A stretch of DNA of 64,000 nucleotides from an uncultured Prevotella sp. (GTDB taxonomy: Bacteria; Bacteroidota; Bacteroidia; Bacteroidales; Bacteroidaceae), in NCBI GenBank assembly GCA_900541335.1, contig UQJC01000004.1, positions 3,808 to 67,807 of the forward strand, given 5' to 3'. The notes below the pieces were generated by a model that saw nothing but the letters and a program-made list of their open reading frames with translations, was not told the origin of the DNA and did not search any database. This document shows positions 14,311-63,350 of this stretch, piece after piece (position 1 is the stretch's first letter; every line of letters starts with the position of its first letter). The translations under genes and the position numbers were made by a program.

Positions 14311-16800
14311 TTACATACCACTGGGAGCACCTCCCTGTTCGTTACCTTGTCCACCCGTACTCTTCACATCGGTATTTTCGATGGAACGTACCACCTTACG
14401 CACCGAGGCTTTGAGGTCGCCGAGGCGGTAACGGATGCCGATGGAGAAGGTGCCTTGTTTCATGCTCGAACGCGTAATCATACGGTATTGTTCCGTTTGG
14501 GTGATGTTCGTGTAATGCACACGCTTCGGCAGGAAACCACCCGCTCCGAGCGAAACGGTCAGGCGGTCGTCTTTGAGAAAACCGCGGCTGAGGTTGAGGT
14601 GGTAAAAATAGTAACTGGGACTCTTCCCTTCGAGCGAAACAGATTTGCTGCCGCCTCCACCAAAGAGGCTGAACTTGAGTTTCCAAGGCAAAGTCTGCGT
14701 GACACCACCGTAGCCGTTGGCAGCAAAACCCCAATTGTGTTGGCGAAGCTGGCGCACACGGTAGTCTGAATAGCTGCCGCTGGCGTTGACAAAGATGGAA
14801 GTAGTCTTGCCTACAGTCCAGTTGAGGTAAGCGTTGAGGTTCCACACTTTCTCATGCAGGAACTCGCCGTAGGTGGAGTGCAACAGGCCGTCCTTCAGAA
14901 AAGTATAGTCGGTCATGCCGTTGTTGCCAAACGAATAGTTCAGGCTGAGGTTGAGCGAGAGTTTCGGACCAAACGTGTTGTAAGCCAACTCGAACTGGTG
15001 ACTCTGGGCACTCGTCAGGTTGGGATTACCATAGCTGACGTTACCGGGCGAACTGTAATCGGCATAAGGCGAAAGCATGTCGATGGAGGGACGGGCAATG
15101 CGGAGGTTGTAACCCAATTTGAGCATTTGCGTAGTCGTCAGGCTGTAAGCCATGCTCAAGGAGGGCACCCAGTCACTCAAGTGCGAGCTAAACGAAGGAC
15201 GTTTGCCGTCGGGGTAGGTAGCTCGATAATGATAATACTCGTAACGGCAACCTGCCAACATCGACCAGGACTTGAGTTTAAGCTTGTATTCCGCGTAAGC
15301 AGCTCCGATGTCACCGCGATGGCGGAAGCGGAGGCTCTGCGCTTCGTTGCGAACGAACTCCTCCTCACTTCCAGCCTTGCGACTCCACTCCGTGTTGTCG
15401 CTCTGATTGAGTCGGCTGATGTATTTTGCTCCGACCGACAGGGTATGCAACTTGCCCAAGGGGGTAGTAAAGTCGAGTTGCACGGTATGCTCGTTGTTGA
15501 GCTGGTCTGGGTCGGTACGGCGGTCAAGGAGTTCAAGGGTTTGAGGCACCTGTACGAGGTCAGAATAAATGCCCTGCGTCTGGTTGTTCGTGGGGTTATG
15601 GCCAAAACGATAAGAGAACGTCAGATTACAATCCTCGGCAAAGGTGTGTTGGAAGTCTGCCGAGGCGTTGAGATTGGTGGAACGCATCTTGCCCTTGTTC
15701 CACTGGTGGTAAGAGTAGACGGGATTCCACTCACGGTCGCTCATCCGGAAGTCTACATCGGCATCGTAGTCCACCTTCCAGCCAAAAAGCCCGACGGAGA
15801 CACTGAGCAAGTCCTTGGGCGAAAATTCATAGCTGGCATCGAGGTTGCCATGTTGAAAGAAACTCTTGTTCGTTTGCGAATTGGCTGTCGTAAACCAGTG
15901 ATTGACATCCTCGTCAAAGGCTTCGCGCTCTCCTGTGGAGTATGACGCAGGCTGTTTTTGGAGTCCGGCACCATAATAAGCCGAAAGGGTTAACTTGCCC
16001 AATTGAGCCATGCCAAAGAAACCGGCATTGCCACCTCGGTTGCTGAAGGTGAGACTCGGGGTCACCACGTAACCCGAAGTTGTCACCTGGCTTTCGGTCA
16101 CAATGTTGAGCACACCTGCCACTCCCTCTGCATCATACTTTGCGCCTGGGTTGGTGATCACTTCCACCTTCTTGATGGTCGAGGCGGGAAAGCTTTTGAG
16201 CACTTCCTTCGGGTTGGAAGTCATCATCTTATTGGGCTTACCGTTGACGTACACCGCAAAACTGTTGCTGCCGTTGACCTTGATATTGTCTTCACCATCC
16301 ACCGTAACCATAGGCACCTTGCGCAACATTTCGAGCGTCGTGTTGGTTTGGGCTTCGGGGTCATCGGCCATGGAGTACGTGAGTTTGTCAATCTCAGCAC
16401 GAACCAACGGCTTTTGCGCCGTCACGGTGGCCGTAGCGAGTGTATTGCTCAGCTCTTTCAGATAGAGCGTGTCGAGTTTAACCACCGATTTTCCCTCCGT
16501 GAGCGTCACTTCGCGGCGCAAAGGTTGCATACCGATAACTATTGCTTCGAGGGTAAAAGTTCCGTGTCGCGGTACGGGAAGGCTGAATTGTCCGTTAGCT
16601 TGGGTCGTAGCCACACGCAACGGCTTTCCCTTTACTCCTTTTTCCATCAAGCGAAGCGTGGCAAAGGCTTGCGGTTCGTGGGTAGCTGAGTCGCAAAGTA
16701 TGCCCTCAACGCGCAACTTGGCGGACTGGGCATAAACAGTTACAGATGTTGCAAGCAGAGCTGCCGTCAGGCTGACCAGTCTGCATACAGTATGTTTCAT
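14311..16800 (-). CDS. Outer-membrane beta-barrel / TonB-dependent-receptor-like protein with N-terminal carboxypeptidase-regulatory-like domain
   Basis: Signal peptide and a CarbopepD_reg-like N-domain (LRVEGILCDSAT…). Long beta-strand-rich region ending in an aromatic C-terminal residue pattern. 829 aa. Confidence 0.7.
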   Translation of the reverse strand: MKHTVCRLVSLTAALLATSVTVYAQSAKLRVEGILCDSATHEPQAFATLRLMEKGVKGKPLRVATTQANGQFSLPVPRHGTFTLEAIVIGMQPLRREVTLTEGKSVVKLDTLYLKELSNTLATATVTAQKPLVRAEIDKLTYSMADDPEAQTNTTLEMLRKVPMVTVDGEDNIKVNGSNSFAVYVNGKPNKMMTSNPKEVLKSFPASTIKKVEVITNPGAKYDAEGVAGVLNIVTESQVTTSGYVVTPSLTFSNRGGNAGFFGMAQLGKLTLSAYYGAGLQKQPASYSTGEREAFDEDVNHWFTTANSQTNKSFFQHGNLDASYEFSPKDLLSVSVGLFGWKVDYDADVDFRMSDREWNPVYSYHQWNKGKMRSTNLNASADFQHTFAEDCNLTFSYRFGHNPTNNQTQGIYSDLVQVPQTLELLDRRTDPDQLNNEHTVQLDFTTPLGKLHTLSVGAKYISRLNQSDNTEWSRKAGSEEEFVRNEAQSLRFRHRGDIGAAYAEYKLKLKSWSMLAGCRYEYYHYRATYPDGKRPSFSSHLSDWVPSLSMAYSLTTTQMLKLGYNLRIARPSIDMLSPYADYSSPGNVSYGNPNLTSAQSHQFELAYNTFGPKLSLNLSLNYSFGNNGMTDYTFLKDGLLHSTYGEFLHEKVWNLNAYLNWTVGKTTSIFVNASGSYSDYRVRQLRQHNWGFAANGYGGVTQTLPWKLKFSLFGGGGSKSVSLEGKSPSYYFYHLNLSRGFLKDDRLTVSLGAGGFLPKRVHYTNITQTEQYRMITRSSMKQGTFSIGIRYRLGDLKASVRKVVRSIENTDVKSTGGQGNEQGGAPSGM

Positions 16801-16998: not shown

Positions 16999-17160
16999 CG
17001 ATTTCCCAACGGCTTGGGAAACTGTTTTAAGGAGCTAGAAGGGTTTCCCAACGGCTTGGGAAACTGTTTTAAGGAGCTAGAAGGGTTTCCAAACAGCTTG
17101 GGAAACCGTTTTAGGGAGCTAGAAGGGTTTCCAAACAACTTGGGAAACCGTTTTAGGAGG
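16999..17160. repeat. Tandem array A: ~4 x 42-bp direct repeats each containing palindrome GTTTCCCAA-cggc-TTGGGAAAC
   Basis: Units at 16999, 17042, 17084 and 17126. The last unit is truncated or diverged. Units 1-2 are identical. Confidence 0.9.
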
Positions 17161-36998: not shown

Positions 36999-38471
36999 CT
37001 ATCTTTGACCGATGGCCTTGCGGTACGCGGCACGCGTAATCTTCGTGTCGATCTGCGAATCGATTTTGTCGCTATGTGCCTGAAGCCATGCGGTTTGTGC
37101 CTGAAGCAAGTCGGTCGTATTGATGACACCTTCGTGAAAGCCCACCTGAGCCACACGAAGATTTTCTTCAGCCTTGTCCAGGCTCTTGAGGCTCAACGCG
37201 AGTTTGCGGTCGGCTTCGTTCACCCGAAAGGCTTCCTGCGTCACTTGCAGTTCAATCTTTTCACGAGCTTCTTCTGACTGAAGGGAAGCCATCATCGCTT
37301 CGGTCTTGGCTGAACGCACTTTGTAACGCGTTTCACCCCAGTTCCACACGGGAACTTTCAACAAGATGCCCACGCTCCAAGTTCCGCGAAACTTCTTTTC
37401 AAAGCTGTTGAATACATTCGGATTGGAAATGGCATAACCACCTGTCAAAGCTAACTGAGGTAAATGAGCTGAACGCTCTACGCGTGCTTTCTCGGTATAA
37501 ATCTGCTGCGCCAATTGCAACTGACGAAGCTCGGGACGCAGTGCATAAGCTTGACTGATTCCGTCCTGTACATTGACCGTAGCTTCAGATTGAACTGAAA
37601 GGTTTTCGCTTGCCTCGTCTGCTAAGATTGGACGATTGGTCAACGGAATACCACACAATTGACAAAGGAGCATACGCGAAAGGGTAAGTCCATCGTCGAC
37701 CTTAGTCAAGGTCATTTCAGCTTCATTAAGTTTTACGCTCACCGCCAGTCCGTTACTGCGGGTAGCCACACCTTCGTCAATCATCTTGACCATATCGGAA
37801 TCAAGTCGAGCCAACATGTCACGATAGCCTACAGCCAAACGGCGTTTGTTGACCAACGAAACGACTTGCCAATAGGCTTTCTCCACATCAAGCATCAAAG
37901 CCTGCTGACTGGCATCAAGGCGGTCGGCTGCAAGTTGCTTCTGATACTGCGTGATACGTTCGTAAGCTTTGATTTTTCCACCCATATAGAGGGGTTGGGT
38001 TAACAGGATGGCACCTGCGGTCATATTTCGGTTATCGGTATGCAAGGCATCTATTAGTCCTTGACCAAGGGCATTGCCCATTTGTCCGATTTGGGGTATC
38101 AAGCCTGAAAATCCTTGTACCAAAGGTGCGAGTTCAGGGTGTTGTGTAACCAATTGTTGAGCCATCTGCTGGAAACCATTCGAAGCAGTCGTTCCCAAAC
38201 TACCGAGCATCTTCTTTTGGTCTTTGCTTAAAAGGGAAACTTGGTCTCCGGTACGCATATAACCAGCTGTCAAAGATATTTTAGGGAAATAATTCGTGCG
38301 AGCCGCCTTACGATCCCACTCGCTCTTCTCTACACTCAAACGAGCGGCAGCAAGTTCTTTATTATTTTGCAAGGCGAGTGCGCGACAACTGTCAAGCGAC
38401 AGCGAGGTCTGCGCAGAAGCGCTAATGCCTGCCCAGGCAAGCAATAGGCAAAGGGTATATTTTTTCTTCAT
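36999..38471 (-). CDS. TolC-family outer membrane efflux protein
   Basis: Signal peptide and tandem OEP repeats. 490 aa. First gene of the tolC-hlyD-ABC2-ABC2 operon. Confidence 0.85.
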   Translation of the reverse strand: MKKKYTLCLLLAWAGISASAQTSLSLDSCRALALQNNKELAAARLSVEKSEWDRKAARTNYFPKISLTAGYMRTGDQVSLLSKDQKKMLGSLGTTASNGFQQMAQQLVTQHPELAPLVQGFSGLIPQIGQMGNALGQGLIDALHTDNRNMTAGAILLTQPLYMGGKIKAYERITQYQKQLAADRLDASQQALMLDVEKAYWQVVSLVNKRRLAVGYRDMLARLDSDMVKMIDEGVATRSNGLAVSVKLNEAEMTLTKVDDGLTLSRMLLCQLCGIPLTNRPILADEASENLSVQSEATVNVQDGISQAYALRPELRQLQLAQQIYTEKARVERSAHLPQLALTGGYAISNPNVFNSFEKKFRGTWSVGILLKVPVWNWGETRYKVRSAKTEAMMASLQSEEAREKIELQVTQEAFRVNEADRKLALSLKSLDKAEENLRVAQVGFHEGVINTTDLLQAQTAWLQAHSDKIDSQIDTKITRAAYRKAIGQR

Positions 38472-38683
38472 ACGTTTCAGTTAGGAGATACCTACGCGAC
38501 AAAAATACCGCTTTTCCCTTAGGTCAGCTGAATTTGGCTCCATGGAAGGGCAAGAAAAGGGAAAAATGGAACAGAAACGCGAGAAAAAGGTTGGCTTACA
38601 TCCCAATCAAACGGGTAGACACTCTGGCAACGCGCCCCTGTCGATATGACAAAAGGGCTGAAACAATAGAAAAGGACTTGTTT

Positions 38684-38852
38684 CAAGGATAAAAATTGTC
38701 AGATGGAAGGAAGAAGGACAATTTTCAAGGATAAAAATTGTCAGATGGGAGGAAGAAGGACAATTTTCAAGGATGAAAAATGTCAAATGGGAGGAAGAAG
38801 GACAATTTTCAAGGATGAAAAATGTCAGATGGAGGGAAGAAGGACAATTTTT
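38684..38852. repeat. Tandem array B: 4 x 42-bp direct repeats, each with 9-bp inverted arms AAAATTGTC/GACAATTTT around a 16-nt homopurine spacer
   Basis: Units at 38684, 38726, 38768 and 38810 with a few substitutions. About 210-380 bp upstream of the tolC start. Confidence 0.9.
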
Positions 38853-38914
38853 CTGCCACAGGAGGGGGTGACAGCAGAAGAGGGAAAGGCTGGAGCAGAA
38901 TGACAAAACAGGAA

Positions 38915-38962
38915 GCAACACCCAAAAGAAACCGTCCAAGGCGCAGGAAGCACCTTGGACGG
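38915..38962 (-). terminator. Rho-independent terminator after ackA (minus strand)
   Basis: 10-bp stem CCGTCCAAGG/CCTTGGACGG, with a T-rich tract on the minus strand. Confidence 0.65.
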
Positions 38963-39021
38963 CTGTATGTTCATGCTATTGCATGAGAATGGAAAAGAAT
39001 GGTTTGTAATCAACGAACGAA

Positions 39022-40212
39022 TTACTTAATCAAATCGAGCGTATCGCTGGCGATAAGCAATTCTTCATCGGTCGGAACAACAACCACTTTCACTTTACTA
39101 TCGGGCGTAGAGATGATTTCTTCTTCGCCACAGTTCTTGCGGTTCTTTTCTTGATCAAGCTTAATGCCCATAAACTCGAGATCTTCGGTTGCACCCTTAC
39201 GCACATCCCACTGGTGTTCACCGACACCAGCCGTGAAGACTACGATATCTACCCCACCCATCACGGCTGCATAGGCACCGATGTACTTCTTAATGCGGTA
39301 ATCGTACATTTCCATAGCAAGCTTAGCGCGTTCGTTACCGGCAGCAATTCCAGCTTCTACCTCACGGATGTCGCTAGAAATACCTGAGATACCGAGTACA
39401 CCGCTCTGCTTGTTGAGCAGGTCGCTCATTTCGTCGGCATTGAGACCTTCCTTCTTCATGATGCTGAGCACTGCAGAGGGATCTACGTCACCTGAACGCG
39501 TACCCATCATGAGACCTTCGAGCGGGGTCAGACCCATTGACGTATCAACACATTCGCCATACTTCACAGCAGAAACAGAAGCACCGTTACCGATGTGGCA
39601 AGTGACGATGCGCACATCCTTCGGATTCACGCCGAGTACTTCGCAAACGCGAGCGGTTACGAAGCGGTGGCTCGTACCGTGAGCACCCCAACGACGTACG
39701 TTGTTCTCCTCATAATACTTATAGGGAACGGCATACATGTATGCCTTAGCAGGCATCGTCTGATGGAAAGCTGTGTCGAATACAAATACCTGGGGAAGCT
39801 CGGGCAACATCTTCTTGACTGCCACATAACCCTTGAGGTGAGCTTCAGAATGAAGGGGAGCAAGTTCCATGTACTGCTTCCACTCTTCGAGCATCTGGTC
39901 TGTTACAACCTGGCTCTTGGTGAAGCGACCACCAGCCACGATACGGTGACCAGCTGCGCTAATTTCATCGAGGCTCTGAATAGCTCCGTATTCAGGATGA
40001 AGGAGCGTATCAAACATCAGCTTAATACCTTCCGTGTGGGTGGGACAAGCTGATTCGATGATTTTCGTTTCACCATTGATTTTAGTCTTGAGGAAAGAAC
40101 CTTCAAGACCGATTTTTTCAATACCACCTGCAGCCAATACGCTCTTGTCGTCCATTTCATAGAGTTTGTACTTGATGGAAGAGCTACCACAGTTGATGAC
40201 GAGAATTTTCAT
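39022..40212 (-). CDS. ackA: Acetate kinase
   Basis: N-terminal MKILVINCGSSSIKYKLY signature. 396 aa. Confidence 0.92.
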   Translation of the reverse strand: MKILVINCGSSSIKYKLYEMDDKSVLAAGGIEKIGLEGSFLKTKINGETKIIESACPTHTEGIKLMFDTLLHPEYGAIQSLDEISAAGHRIVAGGRFTKSQVVTDQMLEEWKQYMELAPLHSEAHLKGYVAVKKMLPELPQVFVFDTAFHQTMPAKAYMYAVPYKYYEENNVRRWGAHGTSHRFVTARVCEVLGVNPKDVRIVTCHIGNGASVSAVKYGECVDTSMGLTPLEGLMMGTRSGDVDPSAVLSIMKKEGLNADEMSDLLNKQSGVLGISGISSDIREVEAGIAAGNERAKLAMEMYDYRIKKYIGAYAAVMGGVDIVVFTAGVGEHQWDVRKGATEDLEFMGIKLDQEKNRKNCGEEEIISTPDSKVKVVVVPTDEELLIASDTLDLIK

Positions 40213-62611: not shown

Positions 62612-63350
62612 CGGAATAGCTGTAAAGCTGAATTTTTAGAGGGTTGAACTGTGCGAAACCACGTAAATTCCGCTTTTGCAGCAGTCTGCACTGTGCGAAG
62701 CCACGTAAATTCCGCTTTTGCAGCAGTCCGCACTGTGCGGAACCCTAAAAATTCCGCTTTTGAAACGGTCCGCACTGTGCGAACTCCTAAAAATTCCGCT
62801 TTTGAAACAGTCCGCACTGTGCGAGCCCCTAAAAATTCCGCTTTACAAGGGTTTTTACGTTGCCAACCCCTAAGAAAACCGATTTTGCAACGGCTCGCAC
62901 AGTGCGAACCGCTAAAAATTCCGCTTTGACAACAGTCCGCACGCTGCGAGCCCCTAAAAATTCTGCTTTGACAATAGTCCGCACTATGCGGAACCCTAAA
63001 AATTCCGCTTTTGAAACGGTTCGCACTGTGCGAACTCCTAAAAATTCCGCTTTTGAAACAGTCCGCACTGTTCGAGCCCCTAAAAATTCCGCTTTACAAG
63101 GATCTTCACATTGCCAACCCCTAAGAAAACCGATTTTGCAACGACTCACACAGTGCGAACCGCTAAATATTCTGCTTTGACAACAGTCCGCACGCTGCGG
63201 AACCCTAAAAAATCCGCTTTTATAACAATCCGCATTGTACGGAACACAAAAAAACTCGCTTTTGCGCTGGTTCGCACGGTACGGAGCCTTTCGTTATTCA
63301 CTTTTACGACTGAACGCACCGTGCAAAACACCGCAAAATGCGAGTTTAGA
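62612..63350. repeat. Tandem array C: ~17 x 42-bp direct repeats (consensus CTAAAAATTCCGCTTTTGAAACAGTCCGCACTGTGCGAACTC) with 252-bp (6-unit) higher-order repeat; each unit carries palindrome GTYCGCAC-T-GTGCGRAC
   Basis: Units align by eye across ~740 bp. Units 3-8 (62744-62995) are re-duplicated as units 9-14 (62996-63247). The array decays at both edges. Confidence 0.9.

Follow-up and report, generated by a model that had tools for sequence, protein, structure and literature searches.

In a 64-kb stretch of contig UQJC01000004.1, deposited as an uncultured Prevotella sp. and referred to here as the window, a tandem array of 42-bp units occupies the intergenic spacer between the acetate kinase gene ackA and an efflux operon. 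The ackA gene (39022..40212, minus strand; Pfam PF00871, E = 3e-149) lies upstream of the array in the direction of transcription. Its stop codon is at 39022, and an intrinsic terminator with a 15-pair stem followed by a T-rich tail is located at 38930..38964 (minus strand), as judged by a terminator scan and the inverted repeat. On the other side of the array, a TolC-family outer membrane efflux protein (OEP; 36999..38471, minus strand; PF02321, E = 1e-46) is encoded by the first gene of an OEP-HlyD-ABC2-ABC2 operon, where HlyD and then two ABC-2 permease genes follow in an order that is kept across strains. The neighbourhood also includes pta and nuo genes, and neither its Pfam annotation nor the gene order in strains revealed a regulator gene adjoining the efflux operon. 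The array itself sits between the ackA terminator and the minus-strand operon, 210-381 bp upstream of the OEP start codon (ATG at 38471), in agreement with the first-pass annotation of this DNA, which had put it 210-380 bp upstream of the tolC start and after the ackA terminator. We regard it as probably a locus-specific, non-coding variable-number tandem repeat (VNTR, or minisatellite), which arose locally within the 550-bp spacer in an uncultured Prevotellamassilia from the human gut and is one of a Bacteroidales-wide class of arrays built on 21-22 bp.

The minisatellite extends over 38675..38852 (no strand) and consists of four units, starting at 38675, 38717, 38759 and 38801, and a closing arm at 38843-38852; these boundaries draw on Tandem Repeats Finder (TRF), a repeat search, a pattern search and the copy numbers in strains. 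TRF, run on the 64-kb window, reports a period of 42 with 4.1 copies, 94% matches and no indels at 38681-38851. On the plus strand each unit is an imperfect 26-bp palindrome, GACAATTTT-CAAGGATA-AAAATTGTC, followed by the 16-nt purine-rich spacer AGATGGGAGGAAGAAG. According to the repeat search, the inverted arms AAAATTGTC and GACAATTTT alternate and the units are spaced by exactly 42 bp; the arms can pair in two registers, across 16 nt or across the 8 nt of CAAGGATA. The 26-nt palindromic core matches four times in the window and not once in 100 shuffles. TRF and the repeat search thus bear out the 42-bp tandem array with alternating inverted arms that had been noticed upstream of the efflux operon, while some details need correction: the unit as typed at first pass sums to 41 nt, and for 9-bp arms the short loop measures 8 nt rather than 7, the loop of 16 nt being right. 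Of the four window units, moreover, only two have 9-bp arms without a mismatch; the other two read GAAAAATGTC, in which the central position is mismatched.

The 16-nt spacer AGATGGGAGGAAGAAG, read directly from the window sequence, is purine at 15 of 16 positions on one strand, as had been claimed, and is interrupted by a T. Yet the purine bias is not confined to the repeat but spans the whole 550-bp intergenic spacer, with a plus-strand purine fraction of 0.66 overall and of 0.60 and 0.67 in the flanks. On the OEP-proximal side, 38630..38674 (no strand) may represent a decayed unit, which appears as a 67% copy in the repeat search and has 17 of 42 in-register identities compared to 11.7 +/- 2.8 in shuffles (P ~0.04), a faint signal. 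Decayed units deep in the flanks were rejected, such a signal being present on one side alone.

The host species is common in the human gut. The NCBI title of the identical AckA protein is “acetate kinase [Prevotellamassilia sp.]”, a cluster-mate of the TolC protein likewise stems from a metagenome-assembled genome (MAG) of Prevotellamassilia sp., and the exact AckA is carried by hundreds of gut-metagenome contigs. The exact proteins are frequent in ENA metagenome assemblies and present in one NCBI MAG; in GTDB representative genomes the best OEP match is 72% identical.

Strain contigs, chosen by an identical AckA or OEP protein, show that the array is polymorphic. Across 17 genomes of the species it comprises 2, 3, 4, 5, 6 or 7 units between identical flanks, and the gap from ackA to OEP in the strain contigs is 466, 507/508, 549/550, 593, 634 or 676 nt. 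Two extra metagenome contigs add a 4-unit and a 6-unit allele. Compared to the window, 28 strain loci have all their indels of at least 4 bp within this array. A unit-by-unit comparison shows a constant first unit, last unit and pair of flanks around an interior that differs; whole 42-bp units are gained and lost, most likely via replication slippage or unequal exchange between sister copies. TGTCCTTCTTCC, CCAT, TGAC and CCTT are invariant in all 67 units. Since the unit number varies on conserved flanks, the array is a true VNTR.

Since 42 is divisible by 3, open reading frames (ORFs) pass through the array on either strand, and gene-calling programs annotate them with lengths that rise and fall with the copy number. 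A protein-coding repeat was nevertheless rejected, since natural alleles contain units of 41 and 43 nt and the array ORFs have no Pfam match above threshold. Clustered regularly interspaced short palindromic repeats (CRISPR) were rejected as well: the 16-nt “spacer” recurs along with the rest of the 42-bp unit at 94% identity, and the neighbours are ackA, pta, nuo and efflux genes. With head-to-tail units, a strain-variable number on conserved flanks and no coding function, the array has the properties of an intergenic VNTR or minisatellite.

The unit was found at no second locus. A search of the window returned the four copies, and a scan of 241 million metagenome records returned two contigs, both representing the ackA-OEP locus. 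Only two relatives have ackA directly upstream of OEP (L018 and L044; ackA 91% identical), and their spacer of ~290 nt is AT-rich and free of any array. Together with the purine bias common to array and flanks, these array-free spacers point to birth in place in the Prevotellamassilia lineage. Alternatively, the array could be the internal minisatellite of a miniature transposable element and have been placed by transposition. Elements of this kind occur in the same order: Porphyromonas gingivalis harbours BrickBuilt repeats with 23-nt units and MITE464/PgRS repeats with 41-nt units, both inside MITEs, miniature transposable elements with inverted repeats (Klein et al. 2015, PMC4596501). BrickBuilt occupies 19 loci and has shared leader and tail segments as well as IS5-like terminal inverted repeats, and 22-nt tandem repeats in P. 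gingivalis W83 are cited in the same study (PMC4596501). The similar unit lengths of 22, 23 and 41 nt (PMC4596501), the intergenic location and the absence of the array in close relatives are compatible with such an origin, which we nonetheless consider very unlikely, given that the unit is present at one locus only, in the window and the metagenome scan alike, that the three 42-bp arrays of the window (two further ones are described below) have no sequence in common, and that the flanks share the purine bias of the array, as local origin predicts. Moreover, a repeat search of 38480-39020 gave only the unit’s own arms and the ackA terminator, although short or degenerate terminal repeats could be missed.

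The alternating arms raise the issue of whether a structure is maintained. In the 17 alleles the arms of the long-loop register are perfect in 22 of 71 hairpins and have one mismatch in 46 of 71, and those of the short-loop register are perfect in 8 of 55. Nearly all imperfect hairpins carry a single central mismatch, and there are no compensatory pairs of changes. As the arms are mismatched in most alleles without compensation, a selected RNA or cruciform is unlikely; the two mutually exclusive hairpin registers proposed at first pass do exist in the window allele, but a hairpin or cruciform under selection is not supported. Folding is better than that of shuffles for the minus strand (z = -8.4) as well as for the plus strand (z = -3.7), an automatic consequence of tandem palindromes.

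This folding could be taken to indicate that the array acts as RNA, either as a sense RNA with unpaired CU-rich tracts (CCUUCUUCCUCCCAU) on tandem hairpins, similar to ar14, or as an antisense RNA that displays GGA motifs in the manner of an RsmY-type sponge. No Rfam family reaches its gathering score over the array. Under relaxed settings, the whole ar14 model (RF02344) aligns to the minus strand at 38688-38817 with 30.4 bits (E = 4e-4 to 9e-4; gathering score 58.8), forming three hairpins with loops that match CCUCCUCCC, and composition bias accounts for 13.2 of the 30.4 bits. The plus strand at 38756-38861 matches RsmY (RF00195) with 18.4 bits compared to a gathering score of 57. A known RNA family was therefore rejected, the sub-threshold matches reflecting composition and architecture only. 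What is more, the 9-bp AU-rich stems of most alleles contain an uncompensated central U-U mismatch, the CCUCC core is polymorphic, with CCTTCC in many units, and no promoter-like or terminator-like sites bracket the array on either strand, except for the ackA terminator upstream. The array probably sits beyond this terminator in DNA with perhaps little transcription. Bacteroidetes make little use of Shine-Dalgarno pairing, and CsrA is not known from this phylum. Taken together, a role as RNA appears quite improbable.

Two other 42-bp minisatellites were found by TRF in the window, neither with a strand. The second (17002..17159) lies upstream, by ~200 bp, of a minus-strand gene (14311-16800) whose Pfam families mark it as encoding a TonB-dependent receptor. 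It has 4 copies in the window and at least 7 in another strain, and two short-read contigs (L097, L098) end inside it. Its distance of ~205-213 nt from the ATG of its gene resembles that of the ackA-OEP array, a likeness that is not statistically significant. The motif CCTTCTnnCTCC, common to the ackA-OEP array and the CT-rich sense-strand spacer of the second array, was dismissed as within chance for CT-rich units. The third minisatellite (62648..63264) lies between convergent genes for elongation factor P (EF-P) and a Mur-ligase-family protein and comprises 14.7 copies with a 251-bp, six-unit higher-order repeat; in 16 strain loci it ranges from 8.4 to 22.7 copies. Hence, the unit number varies among strains at all three arrays of the window, the opposite of the invariance that the first-pass annotation had named as telling against its interpretation.

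According to that interpretation, three independent sequence families with an exact 42-bp period and dyad symmetry within 64 kb reflect a shared mechanism rather than coincidence. TRF indeed identified three families, which are mutually unrelated: the similarity of their consensus units does not exceed that of shuffles, and a 21-bp sub-period is absent from all three. Dyad symmetry was upheld in the form of the alternating arms of the ackA-OEP array. As ~17 kb beyond the window ends contain no further arrays, all three minisatellites in ~81 kb of the species have a period of 42, which upholds the view that the shared period is no coincidence.

The same regularity extends beyond the species. 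We surveyed ~0.96 Mb, comprising the window and loci from 80 related Bacteroidales species (L015-L094), which were obtained from a scan of GTDB representatives, have an OEP identity of 72% or less and belong to Prevotella, Alloprevotella, Prevotellamassilia and Bacteroides. The count took in arrays of 2.5 copies or more, and the Escherichia coli control was run with the same TRF settings. Periods of 7-15 are followed almost only by 21 and 22, with a few at 42, 44 and 63-66 and none at 16-20. Fifteen intergenic arrays have a period of 21 and 18 a period of 22, and any other period between 10 and 27 occurs at most three times. By comparison, 200 kb of E. coli K-12 yielded no such array, although the density in Bacteroidales would predict about ten. 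Unit sequences of the 21-22-bp arrays are unrelated, and about one third are strongly palindromic, with 8-10 paired bases versus ~4-5 in shuffles. Several loci (L037, L047, L078, L080, L091) carry two or three different arrays side by side. Examples of the class are found at L038 5580-5661, L067 1168-1256, L080 2764-3308 and L091 5484-5730. An assembly artefact due to k = 21 was rejected: with 69-95% matches the copies are not perfect, and the arrays also turn up in isolate genomes of relatives (L050, L069, L075, L083) as well as in long-read polished contigs (L004, L009, L117, L120, L127). Apart from the P. gingivalis reports, no general 21-22-bp rule in Bacteroidales was found in the literature.

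Two observations concern repeats at OEP genes. In L037 (1170-1273), a 22-bp array is positioned upstream of a gene for a 63% identical OEP, and its unit GCAGACAATTTTTATTCCCTGC resembles CTGACAATTTTTATCCTTG of the window unit on the minus strand. Within the OEP coding sequence of the window, a 21-nt repeat of 2.3 copies is present at 37068-37115, and relatives have comparable 21-nt repeats of two copies in their OEP genes. The coding repeats probably reflect the heptad periodicity of TolC coiled coils and not the intergenic phenomenon.

What sets the preferred period can be narrowed down to some extent. Arrays in tandem, divergent and convergent spacers number 24, 9 and 2, compared to 23.3, 8.0 and 3.6 expected from spacer length, and an association with promoters was rejected on account of this proportional placement. 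Together with the position of the third window array between two gene ends, it implies that promoter phasing cannot be the general reason for the period. Exact tuning to helical turns was also rejected, as the summed twist amounts to ~717-720 degrees for 21-mers and 748-753 degrees for 22-mers according to twist tables, without compensating composition and without the kind of difference that exact phasing would require. The same applies to A-tract curvature as a common feature, since A4 or T4 tracts are present in 15 of 48 units versus 9 expected (P ~0.01), which is a weak and not universal trend. Accordingly, a precise intrinsic-curvature model for the period is not supported. Among two-copy duplications of at least 20 bp, lengths vary widely and 5 of 13 are at 21-22, whereas arrays with three copies or more cluster at 21-22, albeit in small numbers. 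It would thus seem to be expansion or retention, and not the initial duplication, that is filtered.

Since the unit length is quantised regardless of sequence, something other than sequence fixes which unit lengths expand or persist, and it is fair to infer that the arrays share some mechanism of generation or selection linked to roughly two helical turns; a DNA-binding protein, helical geometry and a slippage bias are the candidates. The proposal of such a mechanism made at first pass is thereby strengthened by the preference for 21-22 bp and multiples in Bacteroidales and its absence from the E. coli control, and the variant that invoked helical phasing is weakened as far as promoters are concerned. 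As a tentative and by no means favoured extension, a rule might operate in Bacteroidales by which expansion and persistence are reserved for units close to two helical turns (21-22 bp) or multiples thereof (42 in the window species, 44, 63 and 66 elsewhere), whatever their sequence or the orientation of the genes; the window array would then be a readout, and possibly a scaffold, of a “ruler”. Other Prevotellamassilia (L041, L067, L075) show periods of 21-22 and the window species shows 42, a difference which hints that the ruler, instead of being bare DNA geometry, acts in trans and can evolve, and that the preferred unit length can shift between species. Such a ruler might, for example, be a protein that wraps DNA or oligomerises, or some property of the machinery for replication or repair.

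These comparative data also bear on a possible non-B DNA switch, in which a supercoiling-driven cruciform in either register, or a triplex formed by the purine spacers, would alter topology and transcription. The window allele with its alternating 9-bp arms and 15/16 purine spacer, as well as the strand bias of the whole intergenic spacer, would suit such a switch. On the other hand, most alleles have mismatches in their arms, which are short and AT-rich, and two thirds of the related arrays have no dyad. The H-DNA or triplex potential ascribed to the spacer at first pass turned out to be weak: H-DNA needs a longer uninterrupted homopurine mirror repeat, and the longest mirror-symmetric homopurine run, AGGAAGAAGGA, is with 11 nt too short. 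A non-B DNA switch is thus barely plausible.

A further possibility is that the array provides binding sites for a dimeric DNA-binding protein, be it an efflux regulator or a nucleoid-associated protein, and that the unit number sets its recruitment or titration upstream of the promoter. TAnnTTTG is the -7 consensus of Bacteroides promoters. A candidate Bacteroidetes-type -7 box, TATTTTTG, is located at 38500..38507 (minus strand), 28 nt before the OEP ATG, and forms part of a predicted promoter; it is the sole perfect TAnnTTTG match in the 550-bp spacer in the sense of the gene, and the consensus has 48 matches on both strands of the 64 kb. A sigma-70-type promoter scan gave nothing relevant, this model being wrong for Bacteroidetes. 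Judged by the candidate box, the array would lie ~175-350 bp upstream of the likely promoter, where any effect on the efflux operon might arise from lengthening or shortening the upstream DNA by about four helical turns per step.

Several features are consistent with protein binding upstream of this promoter. With alternating orientation and an interval of 20-22 bp, the half-sites TTGTC and GACAA would all come to lie on the same side of the helix. None of the 67 units deviates in the outer arm bases TGTC and GACA, whose spacing is fixed at 20 and 22 bp, at least two units are kept in every genome, and about one third of the relatives’ 21-22-bp arrays have strongly palindromic units. However, the inner arm positions vary freely and without compensation, no regulator gene adjoins the operon, and at 175-350 bp the array is a long way from the candidate -7 box for an operator. 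The arrays of relatives are unrelated in sequence, and two thirds of them are devoid of dyad symmetry; hence, no single protein explains the class. The placement of arrays in proportion to spacer length, convergent spacers included, also speaks against dedicated binding sites, and we judge this role to be unlikely.

In summary, the array is probably neither an RNA gene nor a strongly constrained protein-binding operator, and the reading as a VNTR born in place is preferred. As an object the array is ordinary, and the wider period class is the interesting part. A number of points nevertheless weigh against this reading. The fewest units in any of the 17 genomes are two, none having one or zero, and the array could be retained for a reason. 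The invariant parts of the unit could reflect constraint just as they could reflect recent homogenisation. The notion of “no strong function” is an argument from unconstrained arms and from placement proportional to spacer length. Finally, plain slippage predicts no sharp preference for 21-22 or 42 bp, and the explanation is therefore incomplete at the level of the class.

The array provides a ready strain-typing marker for a common uncultured gut Prevotellamassilia. It is also a place where short-read assemblies come apart, as illustrated by the contigs that end inside the array upstream of the TonB-dependent receptor gene. If the unit number does affect the TolC-HlyD-ABC2 operon, the array would represent a heritable, reversible efflux knob in a gut commensal. 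At the level of the class, unit lengths quantised at 21-22 bp and multiples in unrelated sequences are not predicted by ordinary slippage and point to a constraint on repeat growth in Bacteroidales.

In one strain (L105 10959-20558, corresponding to window position ~1350 onward), a phage-like gene block replaces the second chromate-transporter gene and its sequel. With genes for a reverse transcriptase (PF00078) and a GH108 lysozyme among its content, the block may be a prophage with a diversity-generating retroelement.

Among known repeat systems, the BrickBuilt and PgRS elements of P. gingivalis come from the same order, are strictly intergenic, have units near 21-23 and 41-42 nt and vary in copy number between loci and strains. 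Unlike BrickBuilt, the window array is restricted to a single locus, and no such leader, tail or terminal repeats were seen at its ends. Iteron and operator arrays likewise consist of dyad-symmetric repeats at integral helical turns upstream of a promoter; the array under study differs from them in that no cognate protein gene is nearby, the sequence is not conserved between species and the copy number is free to vary from 2 to 7. The resemblance to the ar14 “cuckoo” small RNAs of Alphaproteobacteria and to RsmY is one of architecture only, namely variable tandem hairpins that display an unpaired CU-rich (sense) or GGA-rich (antisense) motif. The scores amount to about half the gathering threshold or less, the phylum is another one, the stems are weak and mismatched, transcription signals are missing and the motif is polymorphic.

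The repetitive extragenic palindromic (REP) sequences and bacterial interspersed mosaic elements (BIMEs) of E. coli also form tandem palindromic units in alternating orientation, with fixed linkers and a variable copy number, after gene ends. The E. coli control itself contains an array with a 98-bp period between fre and fadA (L112 27320-27609), which we take to be a BIME. REPs are one genome-wide family tied to REP-associated tyrosine transposases (RAYTs), in contrast to the three unrelated arrays described here, which have no transposase nearby (RAYTs were sought inside the window only). A parallel in kind is found in the mycobacterial interspersed repetitive unit (MIRU)-VNTR loci of Mycobacterium tuberculosis, intergenic VNTRs that are used for typing by multiple-locus VNTR analysis (MLVA). 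Similar to these loci, the array has head-to-tail units of tens of bp in a non-coding spacer, strain differences by whole units, stable flanks and a variable interior. Yet MIRUs are a dispersed family of related sequences with varied lengths, whereas each of the arrays considered here has a sequence of its own and a fixed unit length, 42 bp in the window species and 21-22 bp in its relatives.

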